A DNA stretch of 62,874 nt, counting the filler, from Rhabdomonas costata (taxonomy: Eukaryota), in NCBI GenBank assembly GCA_019059605.1. It is 45 parts of 45 records of this genome, joined end to end, with 100 filler letters (N's around TTAATTAATTAA, not from the genome) between each part and the next. Parts side by side here need not be neighbours in the genome. Positions count along the whole stretch, not along the records: positions 26,597 to 27,895 come from JAHMHO010020157.1; positions 27,996 to 29,294 come from JAHMHO010020158.1; 43 more parts are not named here. The stretch is one strand, 5' to 3'. The notes beneath the pieces are model-generated. The model saw only the letters and a program-made list of their open reading frames with translations. It did not search any database and was not told the origin of the DNA. Both the position numbers and the translations under genes were made by a program. Numbering within the stretch: the stretch's first letter is position 1; each line of letters begins with the position of its first letter. This document shows positions 1-53,990 of the stretch, piece by piece.

Positions 1-513
1 TGTGTTAGGTGTGTTTAGTGGTTGTTTGACAAAACTGCGTGTCAGACAACTCTCTTCCTTCCAACTGGTAATCTTACATCGATTGAAATCTCCACCTGTG
101 AAATTTCCACACAAATTTTCACCTGTGTAGGTATACCAGCACGCTGTTTTGTCATTCAACTGCCAATCACTGTAGTGAAGCCAAAAAAAAAAGATGCCAC
201 GAACGCTTGAGGCGATTTGCTTCACGGGGACAGTTTCCAGTTTCCTTTGCCCCTTTTTTGCCCCTTTTGCCCCCATCTGCTACTAAGTACTGAACGGCCA
301 TGCGGAGAAGCGGTGAAACCGAAGCTGTGTACCGTGCCGGTCTCCATGGGTGTGTGCAGGCAAGCCACGTGTCTGTATGGGAGGTCAGCGCGGGAGCCGT
401 GACAATCCAGTGGGTTGTTTTTCACTGGCTGCTCACAAGACTCACAGGGCTTGCATCACGGGGCGCCAGTGTGCGTTTGGCGGAGGGGGAGGGACGCATT
501 CCAGCTGGCTCGC

Positions 514-1291
514 AGATGCCGAGGTCTGTCCCCGAGCCCGATATCAGCGCCGCCAAGATCGCGCTGACATCGCTGGCGCCGTTGCCGAGGGCCATGAACG
601 TGATCCCCGCGATGTTTTCAGACATCTGGAGGGTGCTGGTCACTCGCTCCAGGGTGGGCACGAAGAACACGTCTGCCACCAGTGCCACGGCGTGCAGCAG
701 CGCGAATAGCCAGAGGAACAGCGCGGCGTCCCACAGCACACCGGGCGCCAGGAACACCTCAGAGAGGGCCCCCGTGCCTTGCCAGCCGCAATACCTTGAG
801 GGTGGCGGCAAGAGAAAATGCTGAGGTGAAAAGTCACGCTGGAATTGCGTAATTCAATCCAAATCCATCACAAACCCATGTCGTCTTCACCGTGTTGCAA
901 GTGATTGTTTCACTCCTCTTAGTTTCAAGTCAGCATTTGGCTGTGCTGCGCACCAGACGATGCAGTCTGGTGATGCCATATTACATATTACATACATTTT
1001 ACATACATATTACATATTACAAATTACATATTACATATTACAAATTACATACTACATATTACATATTACATTACATATAACATACATTTTACATATGCAT
1101 ATCATATATATCTGCCAATTAGAACCGGGTGGCAAGGGACGTAAGTCCTTAGAAAAACCCGAAATGCTAATCTCCGTTCAGTCTCACATCTTAACTGACC
1201 CAAGCCGTGACATCGAATGCTACACGAGATCATCCATCATACCGCAGCTCCAGGTAGTTCAGGAAGCCCCCGCCGAAGGGCTCGCGGCACA
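514..1291 (-). CDS. Cation/Ca2+ exchanger (CCX/NCLX, SLC8B-like), partial, 2 exons
   Basis: Exons ~1291-1243 (CREPFGGGFLNYLELR) and 794-514 are joined by GT-AG intron 1242-795, giving NYLELRYC. The alpha-1 repeat motif ENIAGITFMALGNGASD is present. The probable next donor is GCGAG at 513. Confidence 0.88.
981..1095. repeat. Degenerate (TTACATA)n microsatellite inside the CCX intron
   Basis: Repeated ttacata/ttacaaa units seen directly. Confidence 0.9.
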
Positions 1292-12598: not shown

Positions 12599-13380
12599 CT
12601 CGGTGACTGTGGTGGGGGTAGAGGGTCCTGTGATGGAAGGTGAGGGCAAGTCCTCCGAGGCTCCAGGCTGTGGGCCCCCCTCAATAGCAATCAAGGTCTT
12701 CTTGAATTCCAGCGGCAGGTAGTTGTACTGGAGGTAAAACCTGCAGTAGACAGAATGCCGCACTGGATGGAAGCCTCCCCCACACACACACAATCCGAAG
12801 TCACGAGAGTCATCATTGAACCTGCCTTAACTGCCACTGCCAATCCAATCCTTTGCATCGCAGTTAAGTGTGTGCCCGGAACCTAGAATACATTGGAACC
12901 TAGAATTGGCACCCCGTTTGTGCGGGCATGCCCTGTTCCGATTTCCGTGAATGGCACATTTTCAAAAAAGAAACCTAGAATAAGCGAAGACCCCAAGAGG
13001 CGGCGGGTTATAGATTGCCGCGACGATGCATCGACTCATGTGCTCTTGCTGAACCAGTTGTACGGGCCCCTGCCCGTCACTTCCGCTCGCACACAAAAAA
13101 CAACTGGGAAGGGAGAAGGTGAAAAGCAAGATCGAAAGGGGTCAATTTTCAATGCTGAGATGAGAAAGAAGAAATAACATCAAAGGAAATGCCCGCACAC
13201 GCGGGGTGCCAACCCGCGATGGTTCAGCAGACTAAGATGAGGCAAAGATGAGGGGGAGAAGAGGAGAGAGAGGGGAAAACTTGAGTTGGGCCTTCATGGC
13301 GTCGCTCACGGGGTTCCCCTCAATTCGGATGTCCACCAGCTCGTAGCGATGCTTCACCAGCTCGATCAATGCCATCACTC
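12599..13380 (-). CDS. Leucine-rich-repeat (RNI-like) protein, partial, two exons
   Basis: Exon 13380-13281 (GVMALIELVK...LVDIRIEGNPVSD) is LRR-like. Phase-2 GT-AG intron 13280-12741 joins it to FYLQYN... Confidence 0.6.
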
Positions 13381-13625
13381 CTGCGGCGAAAGGGCAAGCC
13401 CAATGTCGCATTGAAAATTGACCGAGGCCACGAGCAAAAAAAAACAGCAACAACAACAGAAAGCAACTCTTCCAGTGTGCCTGCGAATGCATCTGCGGAT
13501 CCCCCCCCCTCGTGTTGTTTGGCTGGACCACGAGAGCTTTGGGCTGGCATCATGGATATTGTAATCCAACGGGGAAATCTATCCAAGCGTTTAGCACATG
13601 CAAATTTTATATCCCAGGCATAATA

Positions 13626-13998: not shown

Positions 13999-15297
13999 GT
14001 TGTGGCGAGCTGCGAGCTGCCCTGCCCGACCACCTCCCAGGGGGTGTGCAGCGGTCATGGGCAATGCGCCCAGGACGCCCTGGGGGATCCTGTGTGCTAC
14101 TGCACTCAGACCGCCACGGGTGGGTTCTGGGACGGCGACAACTGCTCGACTTGCGGTGTGCTTCTGGCCCCTCCCCCATCCCTTAAGCTCTTTGCAAGCG
14201 CTTGTGCATTCATGCCAAGGGAGCGGTAATTCGCGAGTAGAGCTTGGTGTCCACCCCGTTGGCTCTCACCTTCTTGGAAGGAAATGGTGGGCTCGCACGG
14301 TTTCGCTGTAATCCTTTGGCTCCGTTTCTCTGAAATCCTGCTTGGCGGAAACGCACTTTTGTTCTCTGCATTTCTCAATGCCTGCTTGCGATGGTTTTTT
14401 TTTTTCGCAGTGGTGGGCAACTACGGCCCGGGCTGCCAGTCTGTGTGCCCGCCGTGCACCAATGGAGGGCAGTGCTCATCCTCATCACCCTTGGTCACTT
14501 CCGTGGTTTGCAACTGCCCCGAAGGTAGGCGCCCATAAAAATGAAAGGAGTTTTTCTGTGATACCACTAACCTCGGGGCATCTATTTTTTTTCCAGCCCC
14601 GTTTTGTAAGAAAGCGTTTGCTTTTTTTCCTCGGTGTTCCATGACATTGGGTTCCGTTCGAGGGAACACAGCGCGAGCATCCTCGTGAGGCAATTCCGAA
14701 AATGGTACAGCCAACAGGGGAACGTACTCTTTTTTCATGTATAAGGGCGACATCCAGGGGGGGGGGCAGACGAAGTTGGCAGATCGTCTTGACTTGAGCT
14801 CTTGGTTTACCCATTCACAAGGCGTGCCACTGGGAGGAGCCTTCGTCTCTCAGCTTGGTCAACTCTTTTTCTCGTTCACTCATCTGCACAGTTGCAAGCA
14901 GCAAAACAGAACTTGTGGATTGTTGGACTGCGCTCCATTGCCCGCATCAATCGTACACACATGCACTTTCTCCTGCAGGAACATGGGGCTCTCACTGTGA
15001 GAACTTCTGCCCGACCAACGGGACCAATGTGACATGCAGCGGCCACGGCAGCTGTGACGACGGAGCCAGCGGCACTGGGGAGTGCACGTGCCGGTTCGGG
15101 TGGTTCGGAGGGGCGTGTGAGAACCCCTGCCCCCTGCTGCTCTCTGAGGGCACGGTGTGCTCGGGCAACGGGGTGTGCACCACCCAGGGCCAATGCGAGT
15201 GCCTGCCTGGGTACCGTGGCGCGTACTGCCAGACTCCATGCCCCGGCGCGGACAACGCCTGCAGCGGCCACGGGCAGTGTGACGTGCTGGCCAACTG
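13999..15297 (+). CDS. Multi-EGF (tenascin/laminin-EGF-like) extracellular protein, three exons, partial
   Basis: Exons 13999-14155, 14411-14524 and 14979-15297 with two phase-1 GT-AG introns. Repeated CSGHGxC...CxC..G..G..C motifs. Confidence 0.93.
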
Positions 15298-26596: not shown

Positions 26597-26985
26597 GGTT
26601 GTTGTTGTCGTCGTTGTTCTTGTTGTTGTTGTCGTTCTTGTTGTCGTTCTTGTTCTTGTTGATGTTGTCGTTCTTGTTGTTGTTTAGTTTGTATTTCTGT
26701 TGTTAGAGTTGTAAAAAAATTTATATATTCAGAAAATACAATTGGAATTGATTCTAATTCTGTCATATTTGTGTGCATACTATATTTATTAAATAACGTT
26801 ATTAATTCGTTAATTTGATTATTTTTTACAGTAAGAATATTAATAACTTCATCTACAATTATACTCATTCTTGAAAAATCATTTGATATTTCAGTTGATC
26901 CTCCTTTTAATATAGTATATATATTATTAATTTTATTATTGTATTTCTTAATTTTATATTCCATATCATGATGTTTCATATACAT
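26597..26985 (-). CDS. Giant-virus-like protein with LKGG leader and Q/E/R-rich repeat, 3' partial
   Basis: Intronless and very AT-rich. MYMKHHDMEYKIKKYNNKINNIYTILKGG|STEI... The start could also be 26979 or 27063. Confidence 0.75.
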
Positions 26986-27049
26986 ATCACAAAGAAATAA
27001 ATTTAAATAATTATTTTTATATTTCGAACACAATTGTAAATTTTTAATA

Positions 27050-27889
27050 TTAGTTGTCGTCATTATATATAGAAATCGTACTACTAATAAATTTTGCTCT
27101 GACAAAACCTATCATATTAGCTTTTATTTTCAATATTTTGTTATATTGTGGATTTTTGTTTGAATCTATATTAGCAGGAAGATTATAGTTTACTTTAAAC
27201 TGATCTTTATCGATTATCTTATTTGTAGACGTAAACATACATTCAATTGTCATATGTCCTATATATTTTTGTATGGGTTTGTCAGTGGAAGTATTAAATT
27301 TTTTATATTCTTTAATTAATTGTTCTATAAAATTTATATTATCTGTAAGATCAGGTATGAATTTTATACTTGTATATGTCAATACACCATCAGTTGTTAT
27401 TTCATGAGATATTTCAGAAGGTCTATAAAAATCATCAGTAAATCGCATTATTAAATTTAATAATACTTTTACATATAAATCATCTGTAATTACTTGTTGT
27501 ATTTCTGAGTGTGAATCCAGTTTAATTGGTATATAAATATGTCTTAATACAGTTTGATATATTTTATATTGATCATTTTTATTTGATTGTGTCCATATTT
27601 CGCCATGAAGACAATATTGACGTGCAAGACTATCCATACTACTTTCAGTATATGCAAGATCAGTTTGTAATATTTGTATTAGATTTCGTATAAAACCAGA
27701 TAATGGATCAACATGAGAACAAAGATTTGTTGTAAATTCACTTGCATAAGATGTACATATCTTATTTAATATTTGTTCATTTTCTGTGAAATTAGCAATT
27801 AATTTATCGTTATGTTCAGCAGCTTTTACAATTTTCTTGTATGGATCTAAATCTAATCTTTGTGCATCACTTGCTCCTCCTTTTAAAAA
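27050..27889 (-). CDS. Giant-virus-like protein of the LKGG family, 5' partial
   Basis: The frame is open upstream of the listed ATG (27637) all the way to the contig end, and begins FLKGG|ASDAQRLDLDPYKK... It shares YQTxLRxIYIP...LYVKxLxNL with the ORF at 28528. Confidence 0.8.
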   Translation of the reverse strand, partial: FLKGGASDAQRLDLDPYKKIVKAAEHNDKLIANFTENEQILNKICTSYASEFTTNLCSHVDPLSGFIRNLIQILQTDLAYTESSMDSLARQYCLHGEIWTQSNKNDQYKIYQTVLRHIYIPIKLDSHSEIQQVITDDLYVKVLLNLIMRFTDDFYRPSEISHEITTDGVLTYTSIKFIPDLTDNINFIEQLIKEYKKFNTSTDKPIQKYIGHMTIECMFTSTNKIIDKDQFKVNYNLPANIDSNKNPQYNKILKIKANMIGFVRAKFISSTISIYNDDN

Positions 27890-28527
27890 ACCCCCNNNNN
27901 NNNNNNNNNNNNNNNNNNNNNNNNNNNNNNNNNNNNNNNTTAATTAATTAANNNNNNNNNNNNNNNNNNNNNNNNNNNNNNNNNNNNNNNNNNNNTTTTT
28001 TAAATGTACCTGAATATGTTATAAATACTTATTTATACGTACTATTTATTTTTTTTATTTTTTTTATTTTTGTTATTGTTACTTTTCTTCAACATAACAA
28101 TATTATTTCAGTACATCCATTTCTTAATTTAATACTAATAGCTATATGTTCTTTATTTGGTATATTTGGAACATCTAAAAAATATAACAATATTACACTT
28201 TTACTATGGATATGGATCTTATTATTGATTTTATTTGACATAACAATTTTATTTCAATAAAACCATCTATTAAATATAAGTTTTTTGTTTTTAATTTGAT
28301 ATATTTACAATATTTAAATATAAAAATTTTGATTGACAAAAATTAATTTTGAAGAAGTATTATATAAAATTTCTTTGAAATTAATTTTAATAAAAAATTA
28401 AACAATTGAAATATAATTTTTAATATAAAAAGTACAATAACAAACATTAATAATACCACTAAATATATATTTTTTAGGTATTATGTGCTCAAAATAAAAA
28501 AATATTTAATTTATTAAAATTAAATTT

Positions 28528-29294
28528 ATGTATGATATTATATATATGAAACGTCATGAAATGGAATACAAAATTAAAAAATACTATGATAAAATTAATA
28601 ATATGTATACTATACTAAAAGGAGGAGCAGTTGGTATTGATAGTTCTATTTTATTGTCTAGAAAACCAATTATTCCTAATTTAACACAATCTACAACATC
28701 TAGAATGTATCCGCCTCAATCTTTATTTAAAAAACAACCTTTACATAGAACAACACATATGAGTATGAATAACATATTAGTTCAATTGACACAAATCAAT
28801 TCTGATTTACAACAAATACAACAAGATTTTGAAACCAATAAACAAGATACATCAAGTTTGATAACTATGATTACGAATTTAAAAACAATAATAGATATGT
28901 TAACAAAATTATTACAATCCACACCTGATTTTAAAATTACTACGACTTTAAGTCGTCTTGATAATACACAACAATTGAATAAAGCAAAAACGTATCTGAT
29001 TAATAATGAAACAATAGATATGTTAATGATAAATGATTCAAATGATTTTAGAACATACCAAACTGAATTAAGAACTATATATATACCATATAATCCAACT
29101 ACAAGTATAAAACATATCATAAGTGACACATTATATGTCAAAATATTGAAAAATTTAATGACACATTATACATTAAAAAGTATGTTTTATCAATCTAATC
29201 TTACTGGTTTAGATAAATTTTTAACAAATTATGAAATATTACCATTTGTACATTCTACGAAAAGAGATAACTATTTTATACCTGCCAAAACAAA
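28528..29294 (+). CDS. Giant-virus-like protein with LKGG leader, 3' partial
   Basis: Intronless AT-rich ORF of >250 aa: MYDIIYMKRHEMEYKIKKYYDKINNMYTILKGG|AVGI... Confidence 0.8.
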
Positions 29295-29825: not shown

Positions 29826-29865
<40 letters not shown>

Positions 29866-31790: not shown

Positions 31791-32717
31791 CTTGGGACAA
31801 TAGGGCGCGAAGGAGTGTGCGCGCATGCGTTTGGGGGAAAGTTTGATCGTGTAAATGTGTGTGTGCAGAGGAAGAAGACGAATCCAAAGTTGGCCAGCAG
31901 GCCAGCCTTTTTTAAAACGTTGGATTGCATTAACCGCAAAGCAACTGGTGTCCAGCACAGCGGCCTTATCTCATTAGCGGAGAGCCTCGAGGAACAGTTC
32001 ACCTCCCACACCTTACTTTTCCATGCGGTTCACGAACCTGAACTACCAAAGGAGCGCAGCGGACTACCGTAACTTTGCCCCTGAACCCCAAAANNNNNNN
32101 NNNNNNNNNNNNNNNNNNNNNNNNNNNNNNNNNNNNNTTAATTAATTAANNNNNNNNNNNNNNNNNNNNNNNNNNNNNNNNNNNNNNNNNNNNCCGTGCA
32201 ATGGAAATGTCTTCAAACAGACTCCTACAGCAGAGGACAAGGAGGAACGGGGGGGGGGGAGCGGTGACATCATTCTGGCCCTTGCAGTGACCCCCCTCCC
32301 TTCCTCCCCTCGATAGATGGCTCAAAGTGCAGAGCATGAGCTTTTTCTTTCCAACTCCATTCATCATTTGTATTGCGGGATTTGAGTTGACGCTACCTCT
32401 TTCCTGCAATGTGCGCACAAACGACCATTTTTATCATCAATGCATCCTTCCCTCATTGTTGGTGGAGTATACTAGCCTTGTTTAAAGTATTTAGAGTCCG
32501 GTCGATGGGGGAGGGGGTTTAAACGGTATAACGGTGCAACATCTTTACGCAGAGAATAGAGTTTTTTTGTACGGTAAACACAGCTTCGCTTTTTCTGTCC
32601 TCACCTTCCCCACCATAACTGTAAACTGTAAAAGGTTGTAAACGGCGGTCCTTTGAGGGAGGTGACAGGGCAGTGCCGGCTCTAACGAACCCGCATTTGT
32701 GTTCCTTTTGTTTGCAG

Positions 32718-33097
32718 CACTTTTCTCTTGGGCCTCCGCTACCACAACGGCGGAGTTCGGCCCGCGAGGCGGGCACTGCACCGTGACCTTGCACGGGCAG
32801 CTCGTGGTGATCGGGGGGTACAACATCTGGGCCTCCTCTTCGTCCTCCTCAGCCACGGGGTACACCGCGGATGTTTGGGTGAGCTCCGATGGGTTGTCAT
32901 GGGCTCAGGGCACGGCCGCGGCGGGGTTCGGAGCGCGGTACTACCATAGCTGTGCAGTGCTGGGGTCCACAGTGGTGGTGCTCGGTGGAGAGACCTCCAC
33001 TGGAGTCCTTGCGGATGTCTGGGGGAGCACGACGGGCTCCACGTGGACTCAGCTGAGCAGCGTGGGGTCGAGCAGACGGCCGGGTCCTGCGCAGCAG
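32718..33097 (+). CDS. Kelch/galactose-oxidase-type beta-propeller exon (3' boundary uncertain)
   Basis: Two repeats of FGxRxxH...VV(I/L)GG...ADVWxSxxGxxW; tttgcag acceptor. Confidence 0.85.
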
Positions 33098-33805
33098 GTG
33101 TCCCCGGGAGACGGGCGAGTAACTCCCTTCCCTCTCTGGGCAGAAGAAATGAACACAGTAAAGGATCCCTAAGGTAAACTGGTTGGTTATAATTCTCTAC
33201 CACAAAGGTGTAAACTTCCTGAATGTCTTGGATCGCGAAGCGCAAAGGAGCTGGGTGGGTTGGTGGGTGGGGGAATGCTGACGTAGACGGTCTTGCAAGG
33301 GTATCTTTCTCACTCTTTTGTACTCCTTGTGCTTTTTGTACCGTTTCTCAGTGAGGTGGATGGAGTTGGATGCAGCTCGATGGCTGCATTGCGAAAACCG
33401 GTTCCAGCATCATTTGTGGGGAAGTTTCTCTCTCTCCAGCCTGTAAGTAAGTTGCTCCCAACCCCAAAAGACACACTTCTGCACCACCACCCNNNNNNNN
33501 NNNNNNNNNNNNNNNNNNNNNNNNNNNNNNNNNNNNTTAATTAATTAANNNNNNNNNNNNNNNNNNNNNNNNNNNNNNNNNNNNNNNNNNNNTGTGTTGG
33601 AAGTGTTTGGGGTTTTTGGTAATGCTCCAAATAGAAACTGCACAATTTTTAAGAAGAACGAAGAACGAAGCTCAATAGGGCTAGCCGAAGCAGGCCTGAG
33701 GTCTTTTGTATACAGCGCAGGCTACTTAATGCCAGGAATGCCAACTTCGTCCACTAGATTTTTGTGTGTTTGGGAACGTGTGGTTGCCTCCTGTGCTGCT
33801 GCCAG

Positions 33806-52655: not shown

Positions 52656-53066
52656 TTAGCGCACGTCTGATGGCCGACCTTGCCCCCCAACTGCAGCAGG
52701 CATAAGCCCCCCACGGCTGTCCGTCATGGGATTCCCGGTCAGAACTTGCAGGGACCGCCACGTTCCACCGAGCTTCGGGGGCAGCTGGGCAGGGTCGATG
52801 AACTCCGAGAGCTTCCCCAGGAAGCTCTTCCCCAGCATTACCACCCGGGGCTCCAGCAAAGGATATGAGCCCTTGACATGGTCCCACATTGTGGGGAACC
52901 CAAACGGGGGGTTGATAATGTACGCCCGCTCGATGGTTCCGGGGTAGTGCTGGGTGTCCAGCACAAAGGCACCCCAGAAAAGCTCCTGTACCTCGGAGCG
53001 GATCAGGTCGGTCACTCCGACCCCGTCCAGATCCAAAATTAGCGCCACCGCCTTCTGGCCTGCAGC
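52656..53066 (-). CDS. CRAL-TRIO/Sec14 lipid-binding domain protein, C-terminal part
   Basis: ILDLDG...QHYPGTIERAYIINPPFGFPTMW...EFIDPAQLPPKLGGT. Confidence 0.92.
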   Translation of the reverse strand, partial: AAGQKAVALILDLDGVGVTDLIRSEVQELFWGAFVLDTQHYPGTIERAYIINPPFGFPTMWDHVKGSYPLLEPRVVMLGKSFLGKLSEFIDPAQLPPKLGGTWRSLQVLTGNPMTDSRGGLMPAAVGGQGRPSDVR

Positions 53067-53990
53067 CTTGAACCCACAAAANNNNNNNNNNNNNNNNNNN
53101 NNNNNNNNNNNNNNNNNNNNNNNNNTTAATTAATTAANNNNNNNNNNNNNNNNNNNNNNNNNNNNNNNNNNNNNNNNNNNNGTTGGTTTGGTACCTTTTA
53201 ATGTCGGACGCCATAGGTCTCCACTTGACCTTTTCGTGTCGGAGATTGGAAGGAAGAATAATCCACTTCGGTCGGCTGGTGTGAATATGCATCTTTCCAC
53301 AACAGAAATATCACTATGGACATTTTTATTTTATGAACTAATAAATTTTAACGAGAGGCATTATGGCAAACACAAAGGGTGAGCTGGAATGAAAAAATCA
53401 TTGAAAGCACATCAAGAAAACCGGCATAACTCCAAATGACCGGCCATAAGGAAGATCACGAAACACACCAAGAGTCATTGGAAGTAGCCATCACGGATGC
53501 AACACAACATGGCTGTAAAAGAGCAGGAGAACACTCCCTAACCGTAGGTAAGTTGCGGGGGGGACTCCGTCCTGCACGTGCATGGCGTCCTAAACCCATG
53601 CAAGAAATCTATTATTGCTCTATGGCCGGCCATTGGAGTCCTGCCAGAAAACCTCTGCGAACTGCTGTCCAGATAACGCGCCTTTATGCATGATGCTTTG
53701 TACAAAATCAAAGGATTCCAGAGTCCACACAAACTTAGAAGTACCGCATTCTGTTACGCACGAGATGATATTACTTCAGAAAAATGCTCAAAAATATATG
53801 CTCTCCAAATCGCTATTAAGTGGAAAGTGTTTGTGTTTTGACACTGCCATACTAAAGTATATAGCAATGGTAGCATGGGAGTAATAGTATTATAGTGGTT
53901 AAAGTGTACAGTAATTTTTGTCTCCAAAAACTGATAAATAATCAAACGCACATCTTCCACAGGAATTTCGGGCCTACCTTCCGGAAGCAG

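Follow-up and report, generated by a model that had tools for sequence, protein, structure and literature searches.

Two AT-rich contigs in the assembly of Rhabdomonas costata (GCA_019059605.1) carry a new orphan gene family whose members have in common a conserved N-terminal module ending in the tetrapeptide LKGG; the presence of this module is real and non-random. The contigs lie in the window, by which we mean the whole stretch of DNA analysed, 62,874 bases long, and the family comprises three genes, A1 and A2 in tandem on contig A and B1 on contig B. The best single reading of the sequences, to which we assign a probability of roughly 0.38, is that the leader is a clip-off N-terminal propeptide with LKGG as its putative processing site. 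A removable propeptide was kept as the best reading because LKGG appears to be under constraint, because the boundary of the module falls at the motif, because the motif would lie between a helix and a linker, and because it fits the rules of known proteases.

The leader and the LKGG motif

The leaders of A2 and B1, counted from the conserved Met-Lys up to Gly-Gly (MK...LKGG), are identical at 73 of 81 nucleotides (90%) and at 22 of 27 amino acids, the remaining differences being three synonymous and five conservative replacement changes. Local alignment of the leader DNA gave a score of 65, compared with 14.3 ± 2.4 in shuffled sequences. On the other hand, the 100 nucleotides past Gly-Gly scored 8, compared with 9.3 ± 1.5 in shuffles, indicating that they are without similarity. 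Since the DNA is 90% identical up to the motif and no better than shuffles after it, the module boundary coincides with the motif; the similarity of A2 and B1 ends within three codons past Gly-Gly. Most of the A1 leader lies beyond the contig end, and its position -5 is Phe, compared with Ile in A2 and B1. These results are in agreement with an earlier note on this DNA, which had described a near-identical leader with synonymous differences in two genes, a third leader severed by the end of its contig, and a small residue always following Gly-Gly. The note had also placed the three Gly-Gly pairs at the coordinates of Table 1, and each was found exactly there, directly after Leu-Lys.

The amino acid composition of the three proteins predicts 0.0024 occurrences of LKGG, and three were observed; chance is therefore excluded. 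Because A1, A2 and B1 are related, LKGG is to be regarded as one conserved motif and not as three independent coincidences. Gly is scarce, accounting for 15 of the 665 residues of A1, A2 and B1 together; six of the 15 lie within the three LKGG motifs and two in a doubtful G-run of A1. The motif holds the only two Gly residues of A2, and no second Gly-Gly occurs within the body of A1, A2 or B1. At the positions flanking Gly-Gly, P4 is Leu in all three proteins, whereas P1' is A/S/A, P2' is S/T/V and P3' is D/E/G in A1, A2 and B1, respectively. All three sites, with LKGG followed by A, S and A, conform to the clan CE cleavage rule, stated either as (M/I/L)-X-G-G plus any residue or as Gly-Gly-X.

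The identity at the motif is also seen in the DNA. The nine bases AAAGGAGGA are the same across the LKGG of A1, A2 and B1, and the motif uses the codon GGA twice, whereas GGT is commoner elsewhere (6 GGT, 2 GGA and 1 GGC). The conserved element could thus be a signal at the nucleotide level, Shine-Dalgarno-like or another RNA or DNA signal, rather than the peptide LKGG. We consider this extremely improbable, since no in-frame ATG, GTG or TTG is present within 25 nucleotides downstream of the motif in any of the three genes, the frames traverse the motif with normal guanine-plus-cytosine (GC) content at each codon position, and synonymous changes are present in the leader. The sequence AAGGAGG was also rejected as a Shine-Dalgarno sequence, there being no in-frame start after the motif.

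The bodies of A1 and B1 proved to be homologous (BLASTP, 43.9 bits, E = 9e-10, 34 of 110 residues or 31% identical), with the runs YQT.LR.IYIP and D.LYVK.L.NL common to both. Significant similarity of this pair begins only about 50-75 residues past Gly-Gly, and the linker past LKGG differs strongly in length, comprising about 10 residues in A1 and about 47 in B1, where it is rich in Pro, Ser and Thr. LKGGA exceeds in length every other run of identical residues common to these diverged paralogues and is flanked in both by non-conserved sequence; IYIP and LYVK come next. Because LKGGA outlasts all runs of the bodies in two proteins that are 31% identical, we favour the view that LKGG may be a short linear motif constrained in its own right.

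The relation of A2 to the other two genes is different. Past Gly-Gly, A1 and A2 have like residues at three positions (A-S-D and S-T-E), and 18 of 20 nucleotides around the motif are identical. The 100 residues of A2 past Gly-Gly gave an hhalign probability of 0.2% against a profile of the A1 and B1 bodies, that is, no detectable similarity, in a truncated protein with about 30 residues of low complexity. The pattern is therefore mosaic, with a B1 leader that resembles that of A2 and a B1 body that resembles that of A1. The view in the earlier note that similarity stops immediately after Gly-Gly thus holds for A2 and B1, but neither for A1 and B1, with 31% identity over 110 residues, nor for the three positions of A1 and A2. 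Its proposal that the leader is attached to diverse cargo proteins finds some room only in the non-matching A2 body, of which 100 residues are seen, and is contradicted by the homology of the A1 and B1 bodies. Judged from these alignments, A1, A2 and B1 are mainly one fast-evolving orphan paralogous family and not a tag on diverse cargo.

Proposed processing of the leader and competing explanations

The leader has a net charge of +4 and a 3-4 hydrophobic seam, and in one heptad register six of seven a/d positions are hydrophobic in both A2 and B1 (M-I-Y-I-M/I-L). Both AlphaFold models obtained were poor (mean predicted local distance difference test score, pLDDT, of 37.5 and 38.6). The low-confidence model of B1 predicts a helix at residues 2-30 (pLDDT 52-62) that ends just before K-G-G, followed directly by an unstructured stretch at residues 31-79 (pLDDT 24-35); the LKGG site would therefore be exposed. 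The order that emerges from the modelling would be leader helix, LKGG, variable linker, helical hairpin and conserved core.

These features could also belong to an N-terminal module that is never cut, namely a permanent amphipathic or coiled-coil helix involved in oligomerisation or docking, in which Gly-Gly acts as a helix stop and hinge. The heptad pattern and the predicted helix with a floppy stretch behind it would agree with such a role and, A1 and B1 being members of one family, a common N-terminal element needs no special cause. An uncut helix is possible, although we regard it as somewhat doubtful. A hinge requires flexibility and not an exact LKGG with a small residue after it, conserved beyond anything in the folded body, and the hydrophobic moment of the leaders is not above that of shuffled sequences (224 and 208 of 2000 shuffles were as high).

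The near-identity of the A2 and B1 leader DNA, next to downstream sequence that cannot be aligned, could also have arisen without any function of the boundary. Promoter plus leader could have been copied among paralogues by recent duplication or gene conversion, which would have homogenised the 5' ends of the present genes; multigene families of viruses and of parasites offer many examples of such events. The mosaic pattern of B1 is consistent with this explanation, as is a weak similarity that extends about 55 nucleotides upstream of the start. The upstream blocks of A2 and B1 both open with TGTG(T/C)TC(G/A)AAATA and both have AAATTT shortly before the first ATG; they may represent a shared promoter or 5' untranslated region, with marginal statistical support, since the upstream 100 nucleotides gave a local-alignment score of 21, compared with 16.0 ± 2.4 in shuffles, of which 28 of 500 reached the same score. 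Homogenised 5' ends are an unlikely explanation of the motif, since LKGG survives in A1, where what is left of the leader is otherwise different (F for I at -5), and a breakpoint would hardly coincide by chance with the sole Gly-Gly. Moreover, 19 of the 22 residues conserved between the A2 and B1 leaders use identical codons, compared with 16.2 expected from codon bias (P = 0.11), indicating that codon bias accounts for the codon identity and that recent conversion is not needed.

The proteins consist of a helical 27-residue leader, an invariant LKGG followed by Ala or Ser, a variable linker and a mostly helical body. In the reading that we prefer, the leader is a removable propeptide, which before the cut would dock, hold or address the protein until maturation. 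The putative cut would fall between LKGG and the Ala or Ser, and would be made by a cysteine protease with LXGG or (M/I/L)XGG specificity, for which the candidates would be a clan CE enzyme from the same genome, similar to adenain or to pS273R of African swine fever virus (ASFV), or a deubiquitinase-like enzyme. Cleavage, the enzyme responsible, the role of the leader before the cut, routing and a viral origin are what we infer. A true clip-off tag would provide a handle for finding packaged or exported proteins, leading from the leader to a list of cargo and from there to the protease.

Several points weigh against a removable propeptide. No protease gene is present on the 2.6 kb of AT-rich DNA. 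The comparison involves only three genes and, the A2 and B1 leaders being near-identical, two independent versions of the motif region. With homologous bodies in A1 and B1, the leader may simply represent an N-terminal region that a single family has conserved. The ratio of replacement to synonymous substitution rates (dN/dS) of the leader is uninformative, with five replacement and three synonymous changes, and the codon identity of the A2 and B1 leaders (19/22) is not above the codon-bias expectation. Both structure models are poor, as mentioned above, and the databases searched held no relative against which conservation of the motif could be compared.

A more far-reaching version of the propeptide reading is that of a mobile clip-off address helix, shuffled by recombination among unrelated bodies in an undiscovered AT-rich virus or intracellular parasite. 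It would draw on the A2-like leader that B1 carries on an A1-type body and on the A2 body, which is unlike the A1 and B1 profile. We consider it decidedly unlikely. Such a helix would be the eukaryote-side counterpart of the capsid targeting sequence of bacteriophage T4, and its release would fall to an LXGG-specific protease.

Genes, contigs and their possible source

The positions of the genes and other features are listed in Table 1.

Table 1. Location of contigs, genes and sequence features in the window
Feature	Position	Strand	Description
Contig A	26597-27895		24.5% GC, 95% coding; two tandem genes (A1, A2) on the - strand
Contig B	27996-29294		19.8% GC, 79% coding; two genes (B0, B1) on the + strand
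Gene A1 (P0001)	27050-27895	-	281 amino acids + stop; 5' end lost at contig end; begins ..FLKGGASDAQ
Gene A2 (P0002)	26597-26985	-	129 amino acids seen; leaves contig inside low-complexity tract
Gene B0, fourth gene, 3' part	27997-28260	+	87 codons + TAA; N-terminus off contig
Gene B1 (P0003)	28528-29294	+	255 amino acids seen; leaves contig at 3' end
Leader of A2	26899-26979	-	27 codons, conserved Met-Lys start to Gly-Gly
Leader of B1	28546-28626	+	27 codons, conserved Met-Lys start to Gly-Gly
LKGG of A1	27875-27886	-	TTA AAA GGA GGA; GGAGGA at 27875-27880
LKGG of A2	26899-26910	-	GGAGGA at 26899-26904
LKGG of B1	28615-28626	+	GGAGGA at 28621-28626
Gln/Glu/Arg-rich low-complexity tract of A2	26598-26699	-	Imperfect 9-15-nucleotide periodic repeats, GTTGTTGTC-type on the + strand
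Upstream stretch of A2	26984-27032	-	Weakly similar to upstream stretch of B1
Upstream stretch of B1	28484-28538	+	Weakly similar to upstream stretch of A2
Pfam-matching exon-like fragment	425-853	-	GC-neutral contig
Pfam-matching exon-like fragment	14798-15295	+	GC-neutral contig
Pfam-matching exon-like fragment	32666-33169	+	GC-neutral contig
Pfam-matching exon-like fragment	52659-53081	-	GC-neutral contig

All four frames of contigs A and B truly code for protein. The GC content at codon positions 1, 2 and 3 was 0.27-0.41, 0.21-0.29 and 0.09-0.14 in A1, A2 and B1, and 0.26, 0.18 and 0.09 in B0; the fall to 0.09-0.14 at position 3 in all four indicates that the frames are genuine. The standard genetic code fits both contigs. 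Code 4 was ruled out, since in-frame TGA is absent and Trp is encoded by TGG three times, and so was the ciliate code, since all 48 Gln codons are CAA or CAG and in-frame TAA or TAG is not required; a mollicute or ciliate origin is excluded because of the code used. The earlier note, which spoke of all three open reading frames on these contigs, had not listed the fragment of a fourth gene, B0, on contig B. This fragment encodes a hydrophobic C-terminus that probably spans a membrane, and it gave no family match.

The start of A2 lies at 26985, 64 nucleotides past the A1 stop, or alternatively at the conserved Met-Lys at 26979. In B1, ATG first occurs at 28528 and the conserved Met-Lys lies at 28546, leaving a gap of 268-285 nucleotides to B0. 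The terminus of contig A (27886-27895) reads ...AAAAAACCCCC, and its terminal G5 run supplies the first two Gly codons of A1; these two codons, read from a terminal G homopolymer, may be an assembly or sequencing artefact. At the other end of the contig, the repeat tract of A2 may be the reason why the assembly stopped. A spacerless palindrome with arms of 25+25 nucleotides, 84% complementary, was observed between B0 and B1 at 28339-28388, about 80 nucleotides past the B0 stop. Transcript-end hairpins are known in mimiviruses, and the palindrome may be such a hairpin or a chance occurrence in AT-rich DNA. A scan for sigma-70 promoters found 16 sites, compared with 30.8 in shuffles, and thus no excess.

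The window as a whole consists of 45 separate pieces of 1293-1310 bp each, apparently ordered by length and joined by 100-nucleotide spacers of the form N...TTAATTAATTAA...N. Since the pieces are separate contigs, adjacency across the spacers is uninformative. The GC content is 45-60% in 43 of the 45 pieces, and the other two are contigs A and B, which stand side by side and make up the 2.6 kb of AT-rich DNA in the window. The 43 GC-neutral pieces look like sparse eukaryotic DNA of low gene density. They contain 133 stop-to-stop frames of at least 110 codons, the 60 longest of which were scanned against Pfam, with one that overlaps contig A omitted. Matches were obtained in only four of the 60 (Na/Ca exchanger, teneurin-like EGF, Kelch repeats and CRAL/TRIO), all of which look like exon fragments of animal-type genes; the bulk of the assembly therefore resembles the genome of an animal. 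No additional copy of the LKGG gene family was present on the other 43 contigs, and Rfam gave no match anywhere in the window. A (GA)n microsatellite was seen at 29838-29862, on the GC-neutral contig directly after contig B.

Searches for relatives of the three proteins were negative. A phmmer search of 1,835,955,588 protein representatives with A1 returned 0 matches at E <= 0.001. A word-indexed search of 5.8 billion protein clusters gave 199 candidates for B1, none at E <= 0.01, no candidate for its leader region (residues 1-45), and 208 candidates among longer proteins for residues 1-100 of A2, none at E <= 1. Pattern matches were obtained in IMG/VR (two for B1 and seven for A1), in the JGI metagenomes with an alignment of the three proteins (420), and in GTDB, where 185,579 prokaryote species were covered by a single genome each (229), and 0 were confirmed in any of these collections. 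Neither protein queried by tblastn matched the phage records. The best E-values among PDB sequences were 0.53 and 0.081, revealing no relative, and in the ESM Atlas the best score of A1 was 0.85, below the lead level of 0.9, B1 being without a usable match. Pfam, PHROGs and NCBIfam gave nothing above their cut-offs for the proteins of the AT-rich contigs. Weak matches of A2 to portal proteins (E = 7e-4 and 0.022) are located on its Gln/Glu-rich tail and were treated as compositional.

The leader itself was searched for as well. The back-translated octapeptide MEYKIKKY was found in 2 stretches of IMG/VR, 25 of the metagenomes and 14 of GTDB. None of these 41 stretches continues into KINN..LKGG; two of them (L015 and L016) have ..LIQGG.. 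at an internal position, where the frame context is unrelated. The pattern INNxYTILKGG had 0 occurrences in IMG/VR. A literature search on LKGG, giant-virus Gly-Gly processing and Mimiviridae propeptides revealed no description of a leader of this kind, which is weak evidence, as few subscription journals were covered. The statement in the earlier note that such leaders occur in proteins of Mimiviridae and Klosneuvirinae therefore found no support in any search.

The source of the two contigs was considered on the same basis. Contigs A and B are AT-rich, intron-poor and tightly packed with genes, and contain tandem paralogues, all of which are giant-virus-like traits, although they do not point to giant viruses alone. 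The same AT-rich, gene-dense traits are found in microsporidia and in other compact parasites that live inside cells. Both contigs carry orphan genes only, with no giant-virus hallmark gene among them. The early promoter motif of the mimivirus type is the octamer AAAATTGA; it is absent from contigs A and B, and its two matches in the window both lie at 13142-13421, on a GC-neutral contig. The label giant-virus-like given in the earlier note thus has neither a relative, a hallmark gene nor the promoter motif behind it, and goes back to AT-richness, packing and tandem paralogues. The best explanation is that contigs A and B are scraps of a gene-dense genome of 20-25% GC, co-assembled with the GC-neutral bulk genome. 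A large DNA virus is a possible source, as is a compact parasite living inside cells, e.g. a microsporidian, and a parasite of the microsporidian type fits as well as a giant virus does. A typical bacterium is unlikely, because no Shine-Dalgarno sequence precedes the A2 and B1 starts and no prokaryote relative was found.

What has been found so far amounts to an orphan family of three genes on 2.6 kb of DNA that is unplaced. In practice the result is useful mainly because it points to a foreign, very AT-rich and gene-dense genome in the assembly, whose relatives are absent from the collections searched and which is worth recovering.

Comparison with known Gly-Gly systems

The double-glycine secretion leaders of bacteria are alike in having a helical leader that ends in Gly-Gly and in combining a conserved leader with divergent cargo among paralogues. 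The length of about 27 residues, the Leu at -4 and the helix ahead of Gly-Gly would also suit a leader from an AT-rich bacterium, cut by the C39 peptidase of an ATP-binding cassette (ABC) exporter of the peptidase-containing transporter (PCAT) type. Pfam and NCBIfam include models of double-glycine leaders, and no Pfam or NCBIfam model reached its cut-off. Such an origin is very improbable in view of this result, of cargo longer than 220 amino acids, of the lack of a Shine-Dalgarno sequence ahead of the A2 or B1 start, and of the absence of any relative among 185,579 prokaryote species genomes or 1.84 billion protein representatives. In the accessible text of a PCAT study (PMC6959990), the leader helix spans -10 to -4 and mutation of Leu at -7 and -12 weakens binding. 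Both complete leaders of the present family have Tyr at -7 and Lys at -12, so that, relative to that text, the Leu/hydrophobic pattern at -4/-7/-12 is lacking.

In the literature, as far as the available excerpts go, LKGG appears mainly as a site of SARS-CoV-2 PLpro and also in huntingtin exon 1, among the matches listed. The LXGG sites of coronavirus PLpro and the C-terminus of ubiquitin and ISG15 differ from the present one in that they lie in polyproteins or behind a ubiquitin fold. A ubiquitin-like precursor of the LRGG type was rejected, since only 27-33 residues precede Gly-Gly, predicted as a single helix, compared with a beta-grasp domain of about 75 residues.

The prohead protease of bacteriophage T4 has a different motif, as it cuts after Glu. 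As to function, the T4 capsid targeting sequence is an analogue of the proposed leader, being, according to PMC9026906, a short N-terminal propeptide that directs internal proteins into the core of the prohead and that the prohead protease then takes off. It belongs to a phage system, and no phage relative was found for the proteins of the AT-rich contigs.

The site itself resembles those of the clan CE proteases of DNA viruses. The ASFV enzyme pS273R, which is SUMO-protease-like, recognises Gly-Gly-X and cuts after the second Gly in the available part of PMC10308890, and this rule also fits LKGG followed by A or S. The ASFV substrates, pp220 and pp62, are long polyproteins with several cuts, whereas A1, A2 and B1 each have one candidate site, which follows a short leader. 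The analysis revealed no asfarvirus-like gene.

Adenovirus proteins bear no sequence relation to A1, A2 or B1, which come from contigs of 20-25% GC on which no protease gene was seen. The adenovirus precursors pVI and pVII each shed a short N-terminal propeptide, of about 33 and 24 residues, respectively, at sites of this kind, and these resemble in size the 27-residue leader of A2 and B1. The cleavage rule of adenain (AVP, clan CE, family C5), given as (M/I/L)XGG-X with the cut before the last residue in the text available for PMC4246237, is matched exactly, as far as that text goes, by LKGG followed by A or S in A1, A2 and B1. If the proposed processing is true, this orphan family would be an independent case of Gly-Gly-directed maturation beyond adenoviruses and asfarviruses.

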